Positions 2,166 to 11,472 of a stretch of DNA of 62,305 bases are shown here, in pieces (the stretch's first letter is position 1; each line of letters starts with the position of its first letter). The stretch is taken from assembly GCA_044868695.1 (NCBI GenBank), contig JBIOWP010000115.1:1-62305 (forward strand), written 5' to 3'. The translations under genes were made by a program, and so were the position numbers. The DNA is from a bacterium. GTDB taxonomy: Bacteria; Sysuimicrobiota; Sysuimicrobiia; Sysuimicrobiales; Kaftiobacteriaceae. The notes under the pieces were generated by a model. That model was not told the DNA's origin, ran no database searches, and was given only the letters and a program-made list of their open reading frames with translations.

Positions 2166-3074
2166 ATGTCCGCACGAACGACCGCCGCCCTGGCCCTGAC
2201 CGCGGTGGCCGCTCTTGTTGTGACGGCGTGCCAGCCGACCGTCAGCGTCTCCCGGGCCGGGATCGATCTGCAGTCCGAGCTGCCGCTCGCTCCGAAGGAT
2301 CCGCCGCTGCTGCCGGCGGACGCGCGCGGAGTGCCGATCCGTCCCTCCGCAGCGGAAGGATCACGGGTCTTCGCCAGAGCACAGTGCGTCGTCTGCCACG
2401 GCCCGCTGGGGTTGGGTGACGGGCCCGCGGCAGCCAACCTCAGGTCGCCGGGCAAGAACCTGCTCGTGGATTTCCTGGCGCTGCTTGGGATCCGGGCGAG
2501 AGGCGAGCAACTGCCCAGCCGGCCGGCCAACTTCCACAACGTGGTCGCGATGCGCCTCAACAGCCCGTTCAGCATGTACGAGACGGTCACCCGCGGTCGG
2601 CCGCATACGGCGATGCCGGCATTCGGGCCCAAACCGGCCTATGGGGCGGCGACCTTCGGGGTCCGGCTGACCGACGCGGAGCGGTGGCATGTGATCTTCT
2701 TCGAGTGGGCGTTTGCCACCACACCGCAGGAGGTCGCGCGCGGTCGGCAGATCTACGAGTCGCGCGCGATCGACGTCGGCGGGCGCGCCCTCACCTGCGC
2801 CTCGTGCCACGGGGTGAACGGTGACGGCCGCGGGCCGCAGGGGGCGGAGCTGTCCGGCAAGTTGTGGGCCTGGGCGAGGGGGCTGGGCCCGGGGGTCTTT
2901 ACCGACTTCAACCTCATGGCCCAGCGCAAGCCGACCGAGATGTTCCAGTCGATCGTGGACGGCCGCGGCGAGATGCCAGCCTACCGGGACAAGCTGACGG
3001 AAGACGAGATGTGGGCGCTGGTGAACTACATCTTTACATTCATGTACGAGTACCCGGCAGCGCCGGGCCGATGA
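2166..3074 (+). CDS. Di-heme c-type cytochrome lipoprotein, probable cytochrome c1 equivalent
   Basis: Lipoprotein signal ending VVTAC; CxxCH motifs CVVCH and CASCH, each followed by an MPA Met ligand; ATG at 2166. Confidence 0.88.
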   Translation: MSARTTAALALTAVAALVVTACQPTVSVSRAGIDLQSELPLAPKDPPLLPADARGVPIRPSAAEGSRVFARAQCVVCHGPLGLGDGPAAANLRSPGKNLLVDFLALLGIRARGEQLPSRPANFHNVVAMRLNSPFSMYETVTRGRPHTAMPAFGPKPAYGAATFGVRLTDAERWHVIFFEWAFATTPQEVARGRQIYESRAIDVGGRALTCASCHGVNGDGRGPQGAELSGKLWAWARGLGPGVFTDFNLMAQRKPTEMFQSIVDGRGEMPAYRDKLTEDEMWALVNYIFTFMYEYPAAPGR

Positions 3075-3075
3075 C

Positions 3076-3110
3076 GGAAACCCGGAAGCACGGAAACGGG
3101 AAAACGCGAC
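3076..3110. repeat. Degenerate 8-mer tandem repeat (ACGGAAAC-like)
   Basis: acggaaac ccggaagc acggaaac gggaaaac. Confidence 0.55.
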
Positions 3111-3147
3111 ACCACCGCGACCAAATTACTATAATGAAAGTACGTGC

Positions 3148-3840
3148 ATGGACGCTCAAACGCCGCAGGACATAGGACGCCGGAAGTTCCTCAAGCTGGC
3201 GGCGACGGTGCCGGCGCTGGGAGCGGCAGTGGCCCTGATCTCGCCGCTGTTGCGCTTTCTGAAGCCCAACGTCGAGAGGTTCAAGATCTACGCGCCGACG
3301 GTACTGGACACGCCCCGCGGGGAGCCGATTGCGGTGGCCACGCTCCGCGAGGTGGCCAACCCCTGGGACTTCAAGTACTTCGTGTTTACCCAGAAGTACC
3401 CGCAGTACACGCCGGAAGGATTCAAGGCCGCGAGCGTGCCCGGCGTGGTCGTGCGCCTGCCGTACAAGATCGCGCTGTACGATCCGGCGACAGGACGCGG
3501 CCCGCTGCGCTGGGCCCGCGACATCGGGAAGACGCCCCAGGTGACGGAGAGCGACCTGATTATCTTCTCGCGGATCTGCCCGCATCTGGGCTGCATCTAC
3601 AACTACGTGGCGAACTACAAGGAAGTGACCGCCGGGTACGGGGGGTACCTGCCGCCGCCGCCGCGCCAGCATGCCCTGATGGCCTGCCCGTGCCACCTCA
3701 GCATCTACGATCCGGCCGACCGCGACACCCCCGGCCGCGTCCTCTCCGGCCCCGCGCCGCGGCCTCCCCGGACCTTCCTCTTTGAGATCCGGGGCGAGAG
3801 TATCGTGGTGACCGACGTCGAAGCGGGAGGCATCGCCTAG
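3148..3840 (+). CDS. Rieske [2Fe-2S] subunit of Rieske/cytochrome b complex
   Basis: Tat motif GRRKFLK plus TM anchor; boxes CPHLGC and CPCHLSIY; C-terminal GPAPRP. Confidence 0.95.
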   Translation: MDAQTPQDIGRRKFLKLAATVPALGAAVALISPLLRFLKPNVERFKIYAPTVLDTPRGEPIAVATLREVANPWDFKYFVFTQKYPQYTPEGFKAASVPGVVVRLPYKIALYDPATGRGPLRWARDIGKTPQVTESDLIIFSRICPHLGCIYNYVANYKEVTAGYGGYLPPPPRQHALMACPCHLSIYDPADRDTPGRVLSGPAPRPPRTFLFEIRGESIVVTDVEAGGIA

Positions 3841-3845
3841 CATCG

Positions 3846-5030
3846 ATGCTCGAGCAAGTCCGCGAGTGGCTTCGAGAGCGCCGGCAGAAGCTGGACCTGT
3901 TCGACGAAACGCTGGTGGCCCGTCAGGACAACCCCCTCTACTTGATGGGGCCCATGCTCTACTACTTCTGGCTGCTCACCGTGGCCACCGGCATCGTCTT
4001 GATGCTGTGGTATGAGCCCACGACCACCGGCGCGTACACCTCGATCGAACGGATCCAGAACGACGTGGGACGGCTCGGAATCTCGTTCCTGGGCCGCCCG
4101 CTCGTGCTGGGGGGGTTGATCCGCGGCCTGCACAAGTACGGGGCGGACGCGCTGATCACCGTCATCTTCCTGCGCCTCTACCGGATGTACTTCCTGGGGG
4201 AGTACAAAAAGCCCGGTGAACTGTCCTGGATGCTGGCGTTTCTCGGACTGATCCTGGGGATGGTGTCCGGGATCACCGGGTACCTGCTCATCTGGAACCA
4301 GCGGGCGTTCTGGGCGGCGAAGGTCGTGCTGACGGTGCCGGTCTACTTCGACGAGATTCCCATCCTGGGACCGCTGAAGTTCGGCTCGATGATCGCCTTC
4401 CTGTTCCTGGGCGGGCCGGCGGTGGGGCAGGCCACCATCACACGGTTCTACGCCATCCATTTCGGCATCTCGCTGCTGCTGCTCATCCTGGTCGAAGTCC
4501 TATTCTTCCGCATGCGCCGGAAGCGCATGAACATGTCGCTGTTTCCGATCGCGCTGTTCACGGCCATGCTGATTATCATCTCGATCATCCTGCCGGCGGA
4601 AAGCGGGCGGCGCGCCGATCCCACCCGCACCCCGCTGCCGATCCTTTCAGACTGGTACTTCCTGGCGCTCTATCAGTACGTCAAGTACACGCCGCCGCTG
4701 TGGGCGGGTCTGGGTCCGGGACTGCTGATCGGATTCGGGATGCTGGTGCCGTTCCTGGACCGGAGTAGGGGTCGGCGGCCCCTGGAGCGGCCGTTCTTTA
4801 CCGTCGTCGGGGCGCTGGCGGTCGTCTACTTCCTTGTGTTCACGGCGCTGATCCTGTTCAACATCGCCGTCATCGAGCGAGACCCGTTCGTGATCATGCT
4901 GGTCACGCTGGTCGTGCTCGCGCTCGGGCTGATGTGGGAACTGCGGTACCGCAGGAAACAACGCCACCTCGCCGCCGCGGGTCCCCCCGCGAAGGCGCTG
5001 GCCGGGGCGGAGCGGCCGGCCCACGGATAG
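3846..5030 (+). CDS. Cytochrome b paralog 1 (b plus subunit IV fused); heme bL ligands only, Qo-like SDWY
   Basis: GGLIRGLH(96), TRFYAIH(205), GYLLIWNQ, ADPTRTPLPILSDWYF; bH His positions are Arg110 and Leu219/Phe220. Confidence 0.93.
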   Translation: MLEQVREWLRERRQKLDLFDETLVARQDNPLYLMGPMLYYFWLLTVATGIVLMLWYEPTTTGAYTSIERIQNDVGRLGISFLGRPLVLGGLIRGLHKYGADALITVIFLRLYRMYFLGEYKKPGELSWMLAFLGLILGMVSGITGYLLIWNQRAFWAAKVVLTVPVYFDEIPILGPLKFGSMIAFLFLGGPAVGQATITRFYAIHFGISLLLLILVEVLFFRMRRKRMNMSLFPIALFTAMLIIISIILPAESGRRADPTRTPLPILSDWYFLALYQYVKYTPPLWAGLGPGLLIGFGMLVPFLDRSRGRRPLERPFFTVVGALAVVYFLVFTALILFNIAVIERDPFVIMLVTLVVLALGLMWELRYRRKQRHLAAAGPPAKALAGAERPAHG

Positions 5031-5039
5031 GCCGCCGCC

Positions 5040-5288
5040 GTGAGGCAGATCAGCTTTCTCGCCGTATTTTTCCTGGCGATGTGGGCCATGTCGGCCGGCT
5101 GGGCGGCGATCCGGGCGACCTGGCAGGCGCCGGATATCGCGGGAGTCATCGAGATACTGGCATATGTCGCAGTGCTCGCCGCGTCGCTATTCTACCTCGG
5201 GTTCTGGATTTACGCCTGGGATCGGGCTGCCGGGCGCGTACGACGAACCATCGGGATCTACGAACGGTTTTTGAGGGGCAAATCGTGA
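5040..5288 (+). CDS. Small two-TM membrane protein, putative complex subunit
   Basis: 82 aa with two hydrophobic helices, 9 nt after the cytochrome b stop. Confidence 0.7.
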   Translation: MRQISFLAVFFLAMWAMSAGWAAIRATWQAPDIAGVIEILAYVAVLAASLFYLGFWIYAWDRAAGRVRRTIGIYERFLRGKS

Positions 5289-5295
5289 TGAGGAT

Positions 5296-5375
5296 GGGAC
5301 CAGGGACCCGGGACCAGGGACCCGAACAGATACCGTCGGTCTTATTCTGGTCCCAGGTCCCCGGTCCCAGGTCCC
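5296..5375. repeat. Palindromic heptamer tandem-repeat hairpin (GGGACCM x4 / NGGTCCC x4)
   Basis: gggacca gggaccc gggacca gggaccc ... tggtccc aggtccc cggtccc aggtccc. Confidence 0.9.
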
Positions 5376-5394
5376 GTAGTCCGGAGGGTTGACC

Positions 5395-5595
5395 GTGCGT
5401 TCCATCTATGCCGCAGGCATTGTGCTCCTCAGCGGGCTGTCGCTGCTGTTCGCAGCCGGCATCCTCTACGGCGAGGCGACCGACCGGTGGTCGCTCGGCG
5501 GCGGCTTGGTCGGAGCGCTGTTGATCGCGTACTCGGTGATCGTGCTCCTCCTGCGCAAGATGGGCTTCGTCGGCCCGCGGAAGGCTGAGCGATGA
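5395..5595 (+). CDS. Small two-TM membrane protein, putative complex subunit
   Basis: GGAGGG RBS at 5383-5388, GTG at 5395, two hydrophobic helices, stop overlaps the next ATG (ATGA). Confidence 0.72.
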   Translation: MRSIYAAGIVLLSGLSLLFAAGILYGEATDRWSLGGGLVGALLIAYSVIVLLLRKMGFVGPRKAER

Positions 5596-6794
5596 GCACC
5601 GCCGCCGCACCCGAATCCCTGGCGCGCCGGTACGCCCGGCTGATGACGACGCTGCTGCGCGGCACGCTAAAGTTGGACGTCTGGATCGGGAAGATCTACC
5701 CGACCGACTTCAATCCCCTCTACTACACTGGCGGCCTGTCCAACCTGTTCCTGCTCGTCCTGGTCTTGTCGGGTATCTTCCTGTTCTTCTACTATGAGGC
5801 GAGCTTGAGCAGCGCGTTCGCCTCGGTCCGCTATCTGACCGAAGGCGTCCCGTACGGCGGTGTCATCCGCGGTGTCCACCGGTATTCCGCCGACGGATTC
5901 ATCGTGGCCATCCTCCTGCACCTCTTCCGCAACTGGTTTACTGACCGCCATCTCTTCTCGCGCGATAACCCGTGGATCTCGGGAATGTTCCTGCTGCTGT
6001 TCGCCGGGTTCATCGGGTTCACCGGCTATCAGCTGGTCTGGGACGAGCGGGCGCAGCTGCTGACCGCGATGTTTGTGGCCATGCTGCGCAGCTTCCCTGC
6101 CGTGGGTGACGCGCTGGCGCGGTTGTTCCTGGGGGGAGCCGGCGTGGGGGAGACCACGCTGGTCCGCGTGCTCTTCTTGCACATCGGTCCGGCGTCCGCG
6201 CTGTACGCCCTGCTGTGGTGGCACTACCTCCGGCTGCGCCACCCCAAGATCTGGCCGCCGGGGGTGTGGGTACTGGGCTGCGTGGGGCTGGTGTTCCTGC
6301 TGGCGGGGGTGATCCCCGTGAGCAACGACGCCATTCCCCCGGCGTCGCCGGCCGCGCGCCCTTCCGGTTTTCCGATGGACGTCTTCTTCATGCTGCCGTT
6401 CTGGCTGTTGAACGTCTTCTCACCCGGAGCGGTCGTGTTCCTCTCGGTGCTGTTGTTCACCGGCGGACTGGCGGTCCCGTACTTCAGCCGCAGAGAGACC
6501 CCACAGGAGATGGACGTGCGACATGCCGGCGTGGCGCAGGTCATCGATGGCAACTGCACCGGCTGCGAGTTGTGCTACTTCGACTGCCCGTACAATGCCA
6601 TCGTCATGGTGCCGTCTCCCGGTCCGGGGTTGAGCAAGGCGGCGGCGAATCGCACGCTGCTGGCCGTGGTGGTGGAGTCCCGGTGCGTGGAGTGCGGGAT
6701 TTGTATCGGCGCGTGCCCGTTTGAGGCGCTGGAACTGCCGAAATTCCTGGAGCGGGATGTCCTCCGGCAGGTGAGCCAGGCGGTGCAGGCGTGA
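5592..6794 (+). CDS. Cytochrome b paralog 2 fused to C-terminal 2x[4Fe-4S] ferredoxin domain
   Basis: All four heme His (96, 110, 197, 211); PEWY position reads PMDVFF; CTGCELCYFDCP and CVECGICIGACP. Confidence 0.93.
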   Translation: MSTAAAPESLARRYARLMTTLLRGTLKLDVWIGKIYPTDFNPLYYTGGLSNLFLLVLVLSGIFLFFYYEASLSSAFASVRYLTEGVPYGGVIRGVHRYSADGFIVAILLHLFRNWFTDRHLFSRDNPWISGMFLLLFAGFIGFTGYQLVWDERAQLLTAMFVAMLRSFPAVGDALARLFLGGAGVGETTLVRVLFLHIGPASALYALLWWHYLRLRHPKIWPPGVWVLGCVGLVFLLAGVIPVSNDAIPPASPAARPSGFPMDVFFMLPFWLLNVFSPGAVVFLSVLLFTGGLAVPYFSRRETPQEMDVRHAGVAQVIDGNCTGCELCYFDCPYNAIVMVPSPGPGLSKAAANRTLLAVVVESRCVECGICIGACPFEALELPKFLERDVLRQVSQAVQA

Positions 6795-7249
6795 GCCGAA
6801 TTCCCAACGTGGTCGGGTTCATCTGCGACTGGAGCGTGGATCTGAAACCCCTCCTGGAGGCCGGCCGCCTGCGCGACCTCCCCCATGTCCGCATCATCCG
6901 GGTGCCGTGCTCGGGCTTCGTGCGTCCCTCCTGGCTGGAGGAGGCGCTCAATCGAGGCGCCGACGGTGTGTTTGTCACGGGCTGCCCGTACGGAGATTGT
7001 CTCAATCGCGAGGGGAACTTCCTGATGCGGGATCGCGTCGACCAGCTGACGCGCCGGCTGCAGCGCAGAAAGGTGGATCCGGCCCGGCTCGGGATGCTGG
7101 CGTTTGGGCTCCACGAGGGGGAGGCCTTCCTGGCCGAGGTCAGGGGGTTTGTCGACCGGATCGCGGCCCTGCCGCCGGCGCCGGCGCGGGCGGCGGCGCG
7201 TCCCGTCGCGGTCGTGCAGCCGGCCGGCGCGCCGGAGGGCGAACGCTGA
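6791..7249 (+). CDS. MvhD/FlpD-family [2Fe-2S] protein
   Basis: FICDWS, RVPCSG, GADGVFVTGCPYGDC...EGN; four Cys ligands; overlaps the upstream stop. Confidence 0.9.
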   Translation: MSRIPNVVGFICDWSVDLKPLLEAGRLRDLPHVRIIRVPCSGFVRPSWLEEALNRGADGVFVTGCPYGDCLNREGNFLMRDRVDQLTRRLQRRKVDPARLGMLAFGLHEGEAFLAEVRGFVDRIAALPPAPARAAARPVAVVQPAGAPEGER

Positions 7250-7356
7250 TGACGCCGCGCCCGCTGCGGGTCCACCTCGCCTACCTGCTCTTCTACGTCC
7301 TCTGGTTTTTGCTGCTCACATTCATCGCGTCGTTCGGGCTGATTGCAGAAGCCTAA
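7249..7356 (+). CDS. 35-aa single-TM peptide, putative small subunit
   Basis: TGATG coupling to the MvhD-like gene; MTPRPLRVHLAYLLFYVLWFLLLTFIASFGLIAEA. Confidence 0.6.
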   Translation: MTPRPLRVHLAYLLFYVLWFLLLTFIASFGLIAEA

Positions 7357-7411
7357 CGCGCTTGCTATTCTATGAAGGGTTTCCACTTCATCATCCATCA
7401 GGGAGGGCGCA

Positions 7412-7795
7412 ATGCAGAGACGGGTTGGGTTGGGAACGGTGATCCTGCTCGCGGCCGTGGTCGCCGCCGCATGTGGTGGGGGCGGCCAGCAGGGAGGCGG
7501 TCAGCCGGGCGGGACGGCCCCGGGGTCGGGGATCACCGTGTCTGAGAAGGAGTGGTCGATCGAATTCCCCAGCAAGACGCTGAAGGCGGGAACGGTCAAG
7601 CTGATGGTAAAGAATGACGGGACGATCGAACATAACTTCATCATCGAGGAGGCGAACGTCGAAGTCGACGCCATCCAGCCCGGGTCGTCCAAGGAAGTCA
7701 CCGTCACCTTGAAACCTGGGACCTACACAGTGCTCTGCAACATCGCAGGACACCTGGAAGCAGGGATGAAGACGACCATCACCGTCAGCGAGTAG
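7412..7795 (+). CDS. Cupredoxin (type-1 blue copper) lipoprotein
   Basis: Lipobox VVAAAC; copper ligands EHNF and CNIAGHLEAGM. Confidence 0.88.
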   Translation: MQRRVGLGTVILLAAVVAAACGGGGQQGGGQPGGTAPGSGITVSEKEWSIEFPSKTLKAGTVKLMVKNDGTIEHNFIIEEANVEVDAIQPGSSKEVTVTLKPGTYTVLCNIAGHLEAGMKTTITVSE

Positions 7796-7877: not shown

Positions 7878-8846
7878 ATGGACCTGACCGCCATCTACGC
7901 ACCTGTGCAGGGCGACCTCGACCGTTTGTCGGCGCTGCTGGAGCAGGAACTGGCGGCCGATGACCCCTTCGTCACCGAGCTGGTCCGCCATGTCCTGAGC
8001 ACGCGCGGAAAAATGATCCGGCCGGCGCTGGTCTGCCTGGCTGCCCAGGCCAGTGGGGGCGCGGGCGAGGCCCGGTTGTGGCTGGCGGAGGCCGTCGAGC
8101 TGATCCACGTCGCCTCGCTGATCCATGACGACATCGTCGACCAATCGGAGGTCCGCCGCGGGGTGGCCACGGTCAACGTCCAGTGGGGGAACCAGATTGC
8201 CGTCCTGCTGGGCGACTATCTCTTCGCGAAGGCCTTTGATCTGCTCAGCCGCATCCGCCACCCCGAAGTGGCCCCGACGCTTGCTGTGGCGACAGTCAAG
8301 ATGAGCCAGGCGGAGATCATGCAGATCAAGCATGGGGAGGAACCGCACGATGACGAGGAGACGTATTTTCGCATCATCGCCGGCAAGACGGCCCACCTGT
8401 TCTCCGCCGCCTGCCGCGCCGGCGGCCTGGTCGCAGGGAACGATGCGGCCGCGGAGGGGCTGGGAGCGTTTGGTCTCAACTGGGGGATGGCCTTCCAGAT
8501 CACCGATGATGCCCTGGATCTCACCAGCCGCGAGGACACGCTGGGCAAGCCGATCTACAGCGACATCCAGACCGGCAAGACGACTCTGCCCGTGATCCGC
8601 GCGCTGCACGAGGCGACGGCTTCGGATCGGGCGCGCCTGCTCAGCGCCCTCACGGGTTCAGCGCGCGACGGACAGGTCGAGGAGGTTCGAACCCTTCTGC
8701 AGCGCTACGGGGGCGTCGACTACGCGCTGGACGTGGCCGCGCGCTATTCCCGCCGGGCGGCCGATGCCCTCGACCCGCTCCCCCGTGGTCCGGCCCGAGA
8801 CAGCCTGCTGGCGCTCACCGAGTTTGTCGTCGTACGATCGCGCTGA
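7878..8846 (+). CDS. Polyprenyl diphosphate synthase (HepT/IspB-like)
   Basis: GKMIRP, LIHDDIVD, FQITDDALD, GKTTLP. Confidence 0.93.
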   Translation: MDLTAIYAPVQGDLDRLSALLEQELAADDPFVTELVRHVLSTRGKMIRPALVCLAAQASGGAGEARLWLAEAVELIHVASLIHDDIVDQSEVRRGVATVNVQWGNQIAVLLGDYLFAKAFDLLSRIRHPEVAPTLAVATVKMSQAEIMQIKHGEEPHDDEETYFRIIAGKTAHLFSAACRAGGLVAGNDAAAEGLGAFGLNWGMAFQITDDALDLTSREDTLGKPIYSDIQTGKTTLPVIRALHEATASDRARLLSALTGSARDGQVEEVRTLLQRYGGVDYALDVAARYSRRAADALDPLPRGPARDSLLALTEFVVVRSR

Positions 8847-8851
8847 CCTGC

Positions 8852-9826
8852 ATGCCTCCCGGCGTTGTAGCGGTCACGGGCGCCACAGGTTTCATCGGCT
8901 CCCATGTCGTGCGGATGCTCCGCCGCGCGGGAACGCCGGTGCGCGCCGTCGTCCGCCCCGAGACGAAGCGGTCGGAGCGACTGGCCGCCGTCCGCGCGCT
9001 GGGGGTCGAACTGGCATACGCGGACGTCGGCGATCTCGGCGCGCTTGAGCAGGCGCTGGAGGGCTGCGGCGCCGTGGTCCATCTCGTGGCGATCATCCGG
9101 GAACGGGTCGGTGCGACCTTCGATCTGGTCAACCGTCGCGGTGCCGCGGAGGTGGGCGCGGCGGCAAAGGCCGCCGGCGTTGGGCGGATCGTTCATCTCA
9201 GTGCGCTGGGCGCCTCCCCCCAGGCGCCGCGCTATCTGCAGTCCAAGTTCGCAGGGGAAGAAGCCATCCGCCAGTGCGGCGTGGCATCGGTCATTCTTCG
9301 TCCCTCGTTCGTGATCGGTCCGGGCGGGGGAGCGGCCGTGCAGTTTGCCGCCGTCGTGCGGCTGGGTCCCTGGTATCCCCTGGCCCTGCTGGGGGCCCCC
9401 AGCCGGCCGCTGGCGGCGCTGGCTATGCTCACCCCGATCGTACCGGTGCTGGGATCGGGGTCATACCGGTCGATGCCCCTTGACATCCGTGATCTCCTGG
9501 AGGTCATCCGGCAGGCGCTAACCCGCGAGGACACCCTTGGGGACGTGTTCGATCTCGGCGGTCCCGACATCCTGACCTACGACCGGCTCATTGACGAGGT
9601 CGCGGCGGTGCTGAGGGTGCGACGGTGGAAGGCGCACATGCCGCTGTCGTTTGCCCGGGCCCTCGTGCGGGAGTTCCGCAGCCTCCCCAACCCCCCCATC
9701 ACGCTGGACGAGTTTGAGGCCCTGCTCGTTGACAATGTGTGCGACAATACGAAGGCAGTTCGCACCTTCGGGCTCACGCTGAGGCCGTTTCGCGAAGCCA
9801 TGCGACACGCGCTCCAAGGAGATTGA
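8852..9826 (+). CDS. NAD(P)-binding atypical SDR (NDUFA9-like)
   Basis: VAVTGATGFIG, HLSALGA, YLQSK, LRPS. Confidence 0.85.
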   Translation: MPPGVVAVTGATGFIGSHVVRMLRRAGTPVRAVVRPETKRSERLAAVRALGVELAYADVGDLGALEQALEGCGAVVHLVAIIRERVGATFDLVNRRGAAEVGAAAKAAGVGRIVHLSALGASPQAPRYLQSKFAGEEAIRQCGVASVILRPSFVIGPGGGAAVQFAAVVRLGPWYPLALLGAPSRPLAALAMLTPIVPVLGSGSYRSMPLDIRDLLEVIRQALTREDTLGDVFDLGGPDILTYDRLIDEVAAVLRVRRWKAHMPLSFARALVREFRSLPNPPITLDEFEALLVDNVCDNTKAVRTFGLTLRPFREAMRHALQGD

Positions 9827-10743: not shown

Positions 10744-11472
10744 TTGGAAGACCGCCCAATGACGATCGTTGAGCACCTCGAGGAGCTGCGGGTGCGGCTC
10801 CTCGTTTCTTTGGGCGCCTTTGGCGTGGCGACCGCCCTCAGTTTCCTGCTTGTCGAACGCATCCTCCATCTGCTGCTGCAGCCGGTCGGCCGGGTCGTCT
10901 TCCTGGCCCCCACCGAAGCGTTCTTTGTCCGCCTGAAGGTCGCCGCCCTGTCCGGGGTCTTTCTGAGTCTTCCGGTCATCCTGTTCCAGGTCTGGCGGTT
11001 CGTCTCCGTGGGGCTCACCCCCACCGAGCGCCGGTATACGCTGTCCCTGCTGCCGGCCGCCCTGGTGTTATTTGCCGCTGGGGGGGCGTTTGCGTTTCTG
11101 GTCATCCTGCCCATCGGCGTCCGCTTCCTGCTGAGCTATCAGACCGAGAACCTGGTGCCGATGATTTCGGTCCAGGCCTACACCTCGTTCGCCACGGCCT
11201 TCGTCCTGGCGTTTGGGCTGCTGTTTCAGCTGCCGGTGGTCATCCTGTTCCTGGCCCGGATCGGGCTGGTCACCCCGGCCAGCCTGGCGGCGGGCCGGAA
11301 GTACGCCCTGCTGGCGATTGTCGTCGCCTCGGCCGTCCTCACGCCGGGCGGCGACGTCGTCTCCCAGATGCTGATGGCGGCGCCGACCTACCTGCTCTAT
11401 GAGGCGAGCATCTGGATTGCCCGCCTGGTCCACCCGCGACCGGTTCCGCAGGAATCGCCTGACACAAACTAG
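10744..11472 (+). CDS. tatC: Twin-arginine translocase subunit TatC
   Basis: EHLEELRVRL, PTEAF, FQLPV, LTPGGD, LYE. Confidence 0.96.
   Translation: MEDRPMTIVEHLEELRVRLLVSLGAFGVATALSFLLVERILHLLLQPVGRVVFLAPTEAFFVRLKVAALSGVFLSLPVILFQVWRFVSVGLTPTERRYTLSLLPAALVLFAAGGAFAFLVILPIGVRFLLSYQTENLVPMISVQAYTSFATAFVLAFGLLFQLPVVILFLARIGLVTPASLAAGRKYALLAIVVASAVLTPGGDVVSQMLMAAPTYLLYEASIWIARLVHPRPVPQESPDTN

Follow-up and report, generated by a model that had tools for sequence, protein, structure and literature searches.

Two unlike cytochromes b in one gene row

Contig JBIOWP010000115.1 of assembly GCA_044868695.1 (contig 115, 62,305 nucleotides, hereafter called the window) belongs to a 2.59 Mb metagenome-assembled genome (MAG) of the bacterial phylum Sysuimicrobiota that is 95.08% complete. 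Between positions 2166 and 7795 it carries a tight row of genes, all on the forward (+) strand, for a dihaem cytochrome c, a Rieske iron-sulfur protein, a first cytochrome b (b1), two small open reading frames (ORFs; sm1 and sm2), a second cytochrome b fused to a ferredoxin domain (b2-Fd), an FlpD/MvhD protein, and a cupredoxin. We focus here on the two cytochromes b, on the iron-sulfur (Fe-S) domain of b2, and on the MvhD protein encoded directly behind it. The genome has no cytochrome b genes other than b1 and b2, the MvhD gene of the window is its one FlpD gene, and a single haem-copper oxidase subunit I is encoded on another contig; the complex of b1 and b2 appears to be the genome's sole complex III.

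The b2-Fd gene (5592-6794) encodes a protein of 400 residues that matches PF00033 over residues 34-216 (E 4.7e-30). Its membrane part (5592-6529) comprises helices A to F with haem histidines at residues 96, 110, 197, and 211, and a 2x[4Fe-4S] ferredoxin domain (6530-6794, base 6530 lying in codon 313) is fused after helix F. A preliminary description of this DNA, made from the letters alone, had read two CxxCxxCxxxCP motifs fused to b2. We place them at C322-C325-C328-C332-P (residues 322-333) and C365-C368-C371-C375-P (365-376), inside a region (309-385) that is matched by the Fer4 families PF00037 (E 1.6e-10) and PF12838 (E 7.2e-9). The eight cysteines and the four haem histidines are conserved across 50 relatives, 44 of them close and 6 distant (with one cysteine at 98% in the close set), and both haem ligand pairs are invariant even in the solo fused forms discussed below. 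The motif of b2 equivalent to a quinol oxidation (Qo) site is x-D263-V-F265, with x-D-[VWI]-F in 47 of 48 sequences. Among solved chains, the N-terminal domains of both proteins are closest to cytochrome b6 (E 5.9e-31 for b1 and 6.8e-29 for b2), and where that protein has the haem cn cysteine (b6 Cys35), b2 has Tyr and b1 has Met.

A hydropathy scan found five helices in b2, to which the amphipathic helix B with His96 and His110 was added by homology. The predicted topology is N-in, six helices, and C-in, consistent with the positive-inside rule: there are six lysine or arginine residues before helix A, three between D and E (where there is no acidic residue), five after F, and one in the E-F loop. 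Because of this pattern, and because the membrane orientation of cytochrome b is known, the N-terminus and the Fe-S domain of b2 are predicted to lie in the cytoplasm, on the side of the inner haem bH. This is the side that the preliminary description had put forward for checking by topology prediction.

Cytochrome b1 (3846-5030) has 394 residues and eight predicted helices and matches both PF00033 (E 4.8e-27) and PF00032 (E 4.8e-7). The ligands of its haem bL, His96 and His205, are histidine in all 78 aligned b1 sequences, which come from all lineages sampled. At the column of b2 His110, the same sequences have arginine 71 times, lysine seven times, and histidine never (Arg110 in the window); at the column of b2 His211 they have tyrosine (39), phenylalanine (29), leucine (6), histidine (2), methionine (1), or tryptophan (1), with Leu219 in the window. 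Glu217, two residues ahead of the His211 equivalent, is invariant (78/78), and so is the Qo motif S268-D-W-Y271, which is followed by F. When b1 was aligned independently to cytochrome b6 chain 1vf5_A with HMMER (E 5.9e-31), Arg110 fell opposite the helix-B ligand of haem bn and Phe220 opposite the helix-D one. A reverse scan from b1, limited to the best 80 of 298 relatives, yielded 74 new loci, and these further b1 sequences read His-Arg/Lys-His-Glu wherever the position was covered. Judged from its sequence, b1 would bind one haem and lack the inner one while keeping a quinol oxidation site that looks intact, and an Arg/Lys-Glu pair probably occupies its former bH pocket.

With four histidines in all 50 relatives of b2 and only the two bL ligands in b1, the two proteins together would carry three haems, a pattern that argues against a homodimer of equal halves. 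As the bH ligands of b1 are absent, the low-potential electron from its Qo site would have no route of its own to a quinone reduction (Qi) site. According to the part of their article available to us, Kao and Hunte (2014) discarded every cytochrome b with a residue other than histidine at any of the four ligand positions (PMC4122944). Sequences of the b1 type would have been filtered out of that survey because any cytochrome b short of four histidines was removed, which would explain how surveys missed a bH-less form.

The MvhD protein and the distribution of the module

The FlpD/MvhD gene (6791-7249) encodes 152 residues that match PF02662 with an E value of 4.3e-28 and 98.2 bits against a family cut-off of 22.3. 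Its GTG start overlaps the stop codon of b2 as GTGA, and the product has no predicted membrane segment or signal peptide, so the overlapping, leaderless MvhD-like gene with four cysteines noted in the preliminary description is confirmed. Cys12, Cys65, and Cys70 are invariant among 48 sequences and Cys40 is present in at least 90% of them, and all four align with cysteines of the solved MvhD chain 5odc_D (E 5.8e-22); the second cysteine of the canonical CxWC motif is missing. A [2Fe-2S] cluster is predicted on Cys12, Cys40, Cys65, and Cys70.

Four lines of evidence agree that MvhD belongs with the Fe-S domain of b2, and the first of these is adjacency. Near-full matches to b2-Fd occur at 112 distinct loci, and 100 of these have at least 500 nucleotides of sequence downstream. 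An MvhD homolog lies within 400 nucleotides downstream of b2-Fd in 99 of these 100, and the remaining locus (L147) holds a single fused ORF as judged by eye. Fusion is the second line, as cytochrome b, Fer4, and FlpD form one protein of 569-758 residues in MAGs of Kiloniellales, Myxococcota, Anaerolineales, and Chloroflexota. The single chain is found in L048, L049, L050, L051, and L052, and is judged from ORF length in L142-L152; by tblastn, ORFs of 511-718 residues look like the same fusion in loci of Deltaproteobacteria, Nitrospinota, Aquificaceae, and Opitutales. Thirdly, the order of ferredoxin domain and MvhD is that of the C-terminus of HdrA2 (profile positions 571-641 and 646-772) and also of an HdrA-MvhD protein from a Desulfobacteraceae locus (L070). 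The ferredoxin domain of b2 lines up with the one at the C-terminal end of HdrA in NF040770 (571-641) and in the solved chains 7bkb_A (593-662) and 5odc_A (576-646).

The fourth line is a complex prediction from the b2-Fd alignment (48 rows) and the MvhD alignment with two haems and two clusters, performed in three runs. The complex score was 0.79 in each run, while the best of three controls reached 0.00. Of 80 solved complexes, 58 reach the mark used for this score, as do 2 of 110 mismatched pairs; these counts are a rough guide here, as our own alignments were used and small molecules were included. The runs share at least 76% of contacts, and the partner has a pLDDT (predicted local distance difference test) of at least 79. 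In the modelled interface, MvhD residues 36-48 and 66-75, which form the loops of Cys40, Cys65, and Cys70, face b2 residues 365-376, the second cysteine motif. MvhD also contacts b2 at 117-119 and 215-219, just past the bH ligands His110 and His211. HdrA-MvhD complexes have already been solved, and the pass of the b2-Fd/MvhD pair may reflect its likeness to those. Because the usual ferredoxin fold pairs the cysteines in this way, the cluster of Cys365, Cys368, Cys371, and Cys332 would face MvhD and the other cluster would face the membrane. Such an arrangement would place the two [4Fe-4S] clusters one after the other between bH and the [2Fe-2S] cluster.

Elsewhere, proteins of the FlpD/MvhD family are known as partners of Hdr, Mvh, and Fdh complexes. 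The preliminary description had seen no NiFe hydrogenase or HdrABC genes in the window, and for the hydrogenase large subunit and HdrA this holds beyond it. The NiFe hydrogenase large subunit (PF00374) has no match in the 95.08% complete genome, and the HdrA2 profile finds, across the whole genome, only the MvhD protein and the b2 Fe-S domain of the window, its other matches being short hits to the FAD motif with E values above 1e-6. A tblastn search with the L070 HdrA-MvhD protein found nothing further in the genome. CCG domains of the HdrB/D type occur on three other contigs and not in the window. Of the HdrA- or NuoF-like partners proposed for a genome search, no HdrA was found and a NuoF is present. 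That MvhD serves an HdrA/hydrogenase complex encoded elsewhere and stands after b2 by accident would fit the fact that all its PDB matches are subunit D of such hydrogenases or related proteins, but this explanation is close to refuted by the absence of HdrA and of a NiFe large subunit, by the finding that MvhD adjoins or is fused to b2-Fd at all 100 loci, and by the stop/start overlap and predicted interface.

The gene order of Rieske protein, b1, a gap with small ORFs, b2-Fd, and MvhD recurs in Sysuimicrobiota (CSP1-3), where the records of close relatives are often labelled Armatimonadetes or ANGP1. It was also found in Deinococcales MAGs (43% identity to b2), in a MAG labelled Symbiobacterium thermophilum (45%; L104), in many Melainabacteria, Obscuribacterales, and Vampirovibrionia (35-40%), and in other MAGs. 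The carriers bear the labels of five or more phyla; a scan with an alignment gave at least 576 relatives, of which the best 80 were used. In the Symbiobacterium and Obscuribacter loci, the upstream genes encode COX1 and FixO/cytochrome c of the cbb3 type. Among b2-Fd loci with at least 3200 nucleotides upstream, 71 of 79 have the Rieske and b1 genes and the other eight are solo fused forms, while all 57 b1 loci with at least 3300 nucleotides downstream have b2-Fd and MvhD. In the sampled loci, b1 never occurs without b2.

Within the phylum, the C-terminal half of b2 was found in 81 of 94 genomes (47 of the 54 of high quality) and that of b1 in 82 of 94. Both halves are present in 80 genomes and neither in 11 (eight of them of one genus), and the three discordant genomes are all fragmented MAGs. 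Without two unpublished genomes (G017 and G025), the counts are 79 of 92 for b2, 80 of 92 for b1, and 78 of 92 for both; these tallies describe related genomes and not independent samples. The eight genomes of the one genus (G027-G034, same order) lack both the b1 and b2 halves, five of them being 92-97% complete, and the whole complex seems to be absent from this genus. A midpoint-rooted tree with 41 rows places b1 in a single clade (100/100) that a long branch separates from b2 and the solo forms, and lineage groupings are broadly alike in the b1 and b2 halves. The solo forms make up one clade (100/99) that is sister to melainabacterial b2 (98/97), and because this clade is nested inside b2, they look derived.

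Several observations concern the solo loci themselves. In L049, L050, and L052, the fused proteins extend beyond MvhD by 150-250 C-terminal residues, which comprise a membrane helix and a further domain of some 150 residues, and a similar membrane protein is encoded as a separate ORF right after the fused gene at L048:7538-8089, L053:5376-5876, and L145:8495-9145. A Pfam scan of the ORFs at L048 and L145 returned no family. In a Burkholderiales MAG, L053:3427-5379 encodes a cytochrome b fused to Fer2, FAD_binding_6, and NAD_binding_1 domains (650 residues), which by eye adjoins a cytochrome b-Fd gene and oxidase-like genes; in the tree, this paralog is the sister of the cytochrome b-Fd copy at the same locus (97/68).

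Routes for the low-potential electron

We read positions 2166-7795 as encoding one Rieske/cytochrome b complex in which b1 and b2 would form a heterodimer and the Fe-S arm would be the main low-potential route, a reading for which we consider the chances about even. Menaquinol would be oxidized at the Qo site (SDWY) of b1. One electron would pass to the Rieske protein, the dihaem cytochrome c, the cupredoxin, and an oxidase, and the other would travel from bL of b1 to bL and bH of b2, then through the two [4Fe-4S] clusters to the [2Fe-2S] cluster of MvhD and on to some soluble cytoplasmic acceptor. If that acceptor returned the electron to quinone inside, a Q cycle would be closed by way of the cytoplasm with the proton balance of a normal Q cycle; if it were NAD(P)+ or ferredoxin, the result would be a quinol-driven production of reductant.

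A heterodimer is the simplest reading because the second electron from Qo would stop at bL if b1 paired with itself, because the two bL haems are neighbors in cytochrome bc dimers, and because transfer between them has been made to work by engineering. In the available portions of two reports on engineered fusion bc complexes, electron transfer from bL to bL sustains catalysis and growth (PMC4330944, PMC4152375). The Fe-S arm is favored as the exit because the low-potential path is concentrated on the subunit that bears it, because the haems and clusters are invariant, and because MvhD in the model lies over the surface expected to house a Qi site. The preliminary description had proposed an output wire by which electrons leave bH into Fe-S centers; this idea is strengthened but not proven, being partly supported by the cytoplasmic placement, the MvhD interface near the bH-ligand loops, the lack of Hdr and hydrogenase, and the bH-less b1. 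A more radical version, which we regard as possible and somewhat doubtful, is that the Qi half of the Q cycle has been abandoned altogether and all low-potential electrons go by way of the b2 Fe-S arm to ferredoxin or NAD(P)+ (quinone-based bifurcation). Aerobic bacteria of several phyla, among them the non-photosynthetic sister group of the cyanobacteria, would then have this as their only complex III.

A number of points weigh against a heterodimer with outward flow. The potential of ferredoxin-type clusters is usually lower than that of bH and the step opposes the membrane potential, so that outward flow would need energy from the high-potential branch. Many carriers are labelled as Melainabacteria, Deinococcales, and Symbiobacterium, presumed heterotrophs to which reverse electron flow would be of little use. 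The ORFs that follow MvhD, inspected by eye, include no partner gene shared across phyla, and a helix D histidine is retained in 2 of the 78 b1 sequences and 4 of the 74 further ones. A fusion of b1 and b2, sought among longer proteins, gave seven matches that are all cytochromes b with cytochrome c domains and none with Fer4, which is weak evidence.

In a rival reading, which takes up the cyclic injection of cytoplasmic electrons that the preliminary description had named as its own alternative, the heterodimer is the same but a working Qi site on b2 completes the Q cycle and the Fe-S arm is an inlet, leading electrons from a cytoplasmic reductant (ferredoxin or an NAD(P)H-linked enzyme) through [2Fe-2S] and 2x[4Fe-4S] to bH and quinone. 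This would be a hard-wired version of the ferredoxin-dependent cyclic flow in b6f. In Mvh-Hdr complexes, electrons run from MvhD to the ferredoxin domain, and the sequence of Fe-S, haem, and quinone is downhill. The L053 paralog has Fer2, FAD, and NAD domains, a typical reductase module, in place of Fd-MvhD, and a module of this ferredoxin-NADP+ reductase type usually takes electrons inward from NAD(P)H. The presumed heterotrophs among the carriers include some with cbb3-type oxidase operons, and the basic residues Arg214 and His217 just beyond His211 of b2 make a Qi site there conceivable. An inlet, however, leaves unexplained why bH was lost in all 78 b1 sequences, and no donor enzyme is encoded nearby. 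The invariance of both b2 haems even in the solo forms also suggests that crossing the membrane is essential, and the modelled MvhD lies over b2 residues 215-219, the would-be Qi location. We consider an inlet unlikely on balance, if still worth serious consideration.

It is also conceivable that b2-Fd and MvhD form a separate homodimeric complex, of the kind that the solo fused forms must make, that is merely co-transcribed with the bc genes and that moves electrons through the membrane between a cytoplasmic carrier and a periplasmic copper or haem acceptor (cupredoxin, oxidase) or a quinone site. The solo forms speak for this, as they lack Rieske and b1 genes at their loci and adjoin genes for COX1, a COX2-like protein, and SCO1, and a protein of the b2 type can probably function alone as they do. 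The available part of Kao and Hunte (2014) likewise describes a ‘PDWF-FeS’ clade with no Rieske gene in the cluster (PMC4122944), and in the window a cupredoxin gene follows MvhD. Against this, a separate complex would leave a b1 with bL only and its second electron without an exit, b1 and b2 are never apart where enough sequence is present (57 of 57 and 71 of 79 loci, the other eight being solo), and the solo forms look derived. Taken together, these points make a separate complex improbable.

A role of the Fe-S arm in cofactor supply, for example as a CcoG-like cupric reductase that prepares Cu(I) for neighboring copper enzymes, has very little to recommend it. Wherever the module occurs, genes for copper enzymes or for copper handling lie close by (a cupredoxin, genes of the cbb3 type, COX1/COX2-like genes together with SCO1, and, in L050, a P-type ATPase), but bc complexes adjoin oxidases anyway. 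CcoG/FixG itself (TIGR02745) was found in none of four operon-carrying genomes (G000, G094, G095, and G096), three of which have cbb3-type genes adjoining the operon; we judge this too weak to carry weight, as CcoG is not universal and its absence says little. Such a role would also leave the bH-less b1 and the MvhD module unexplained, and no motif for copper binding was noticed, with no search aimed at one.

Related systems and neighboring features

The putative complex shares with bc1 and b6f a Rieske protein, a c-type cytochrome, the cytochrome b fold, and a Qo motif of the PEWY type (SDWY in b1). It differs from these homodimers in having two different cytochromes b, of which b1 lacks the bH ligands and b2 lacks helices G and H and carries 2x[4Fe-4S] and MvhD, and in having no haem cn cysteine. 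To our knowledge, every bc1 or b6f complex examined to date is a symmetric dimer with a Qi site at which the low-potential electron goes back to quinone. QmoABC of sulfate reducers likewise combines a membrane dihaem cytochrome b with Fe-S domains and an MvhD-like domain and links quinol to cytoplasmic redox chemistry, but its cytochrome b is of the NarI/HdrE type, and it has HdrA-like flavoproteins and no Rieske protein. The solved HdrA-MvhD complexes (5odc, 7bkb) share the ferredoxin domain followed by MvhD, collinear with HdrA2 571-772. Here, in contrast, there is no FAD/thioredoxin-reductase domain, no HdrBC, and no hydrogenase, and the ferredoxin domain sits on a membrane cytochrome b.

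Fused proteins of cytochrome b, 4Fe-4S, and MvhD, and others of cytochrome b, ferredoxin, and flavin reductase, were recorded in 2014 as ‘PDWF-FeS’ in the portion of Kao and Hunte available to us (PMC4122944), and our solo loci L048-L053 and L142-L152 show that architecture; a Qo-equivalent motif of the form x-D-[VWI]-F is a further common feature. As far as that portion goes, the members are single polypeptides with no Rieske protein in the cluster (PMC4122944), whereas in the operon studied here MvhD is a separate gene, a Rieske protein is present, and there is a second, bH-less cytochrome b. One fused protein of the cytochrome b-FeS-MvhD type also appears in a table of eNOR neighbors from Chloroflexi (PMC8756737), and a 2017 paper describes a cytochrome b ‘subfamily H’ of large proteins of unknown function. 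The anammox complexes Kustd1480-1485 and Kuste4569-4574 resemble ours in joining Rieske/cytochrome b to an extra cytoplasmic redox module, through which, in the accessible text, the low-potential electron is proposed to reach NAD(P)+ rather than Qi (PMC12954380). In the same text, that module is a putative NAD(P) oxidoreductase and multihaem cytochromes c form the high-potential side (PMC12954380), as opposed to a flavin-less ferredoxin domain and MvhD with a dihaem cytochrome c and a cupredoxin.

In the literature searched, we found no description of a Rieske-linked operon with two cytochromes b or of a bH-less b1, although the supplementary tables of cytochrome b surveys may list such sequences. 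None of the terms cytochrome b, complex III, bc1, Rieske, and MvhD occurs in the main text of a Sysuimicrobiota paper (PMC11604079). In papers on Melainabacteria and Sysuimicrobiota, complex III is either discussed or unmentioned and the Fe-S arm is absent, and the first 300,000 characters of a 2021 Chemical Reviews article lack the relevant terms. The fused PDWF-FeS forms are thus already known, and what appears to be new is the Rieske-linked, putatively asymmetric core of two cytochromes b with a bH-less b1 and a predicted cytoplasmic Fe-S arm. This operon family looks like a natural asymmetric bc complex in which one half only oxidizes quinol and the other has the sole inner haem and an Fe-S exit or entrance. 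If this is true, it would offer a test bed for transfer between monomers and for the reduction of NAD(P) or ferredoxin driven by Rieske/cytochrome b, so far proposed for anammox. It would also change the annotation of complex III in Sysuimicrobiota, Melainabacteria, and related MAGs, and it would bear on the origin of the ferredoxin-linked n-side chemistry of b6f.

The dihaem cytochrome c (2166-3074; PF13442 E 7.2e-19, PF00034 E 8.8e-18) lies in an ORF that is open from a GTG at 1983. Its likely start is the ATG at 2166, which is followed by a signal- or lipoprotein-like N-terminus; two CxxCH motifs stand at residues 135 and 272 of the long ORF, and the alignment with relatives begins at about residue 62. 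The Rieske protein (3148-3840) has CPHLGC at residue 144, CPCH at residue 180, and a twin-arginine leader (RRKFLK). It matches TIGR01416 with an E value of 4.9e-12, which is under the family cut-off, and no Pfam family at E values of 0.01 or below. Its gene is directly upstream of b1, a position kept in relatives. The cupredoxin (7412-7795, type-1 copper-like; PF13473 E 4.2e-9, PF00127 E 1.7e-5) is by its sequence probably a lipoprotein and likely the periplasmic acceptor of the high-potential branch, and its gene is retained downstream in many, not all, Sysuimicrobiota loci.

Between b1 and b2 lie sm1 (5040-5288, 82 residues, two transmembrane helices, and a tail rich in lysine and arginine) and sm2 (5389-5595, 68 residues, two transmembrane helices), neither of which matched a Pfam family. 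By tblastn, sm1 has matches in the loci of 41 relatives at E values of 0.01 or below (the weakest being short, with E about 0.005) and also in some Deinococcales and Obscuribacter loci, and sm2 has matches in the loci of 42 relatives. The stop codon of sm2 overlaps the start of b2 as ATGA. Within the operon, between sm1 and sm2, repeated GGGACC(A/C) units and their complement form a predicted RNA hairpin on the + strand (5294-5377; -61.9 kcal/mol, z -3.47), which may act as an attenuator or mark a processing site, or may be a repeat element.

Upstream of and divergent from the operon, two ORFs on the reverse (-) strand (1441-2175 and 72-1439) look by eye, from their translations, like a response regulator and a histidine kinase. 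On the 3' side of the cupredoxin gene lie a polyprenyl synthase (7878-8846; PF00348 E 3e-69) and an NmrA-like NAD(P)-binding protein (8852-9826). We rejected these two as partners of the complex, as their synteny is limited to Sysuimicrobiota (many loci) and does not extend to other phyla. About 3 kb downstream of the operon, with its Tat-exported Rieske protein, is an ORF that by eye is TatC-like (10744-11472). The sequence is present in seven soil-metagenome DNA datasets from three studies, with no RNA dataset listed, and two of the seven are possibly its source sample.

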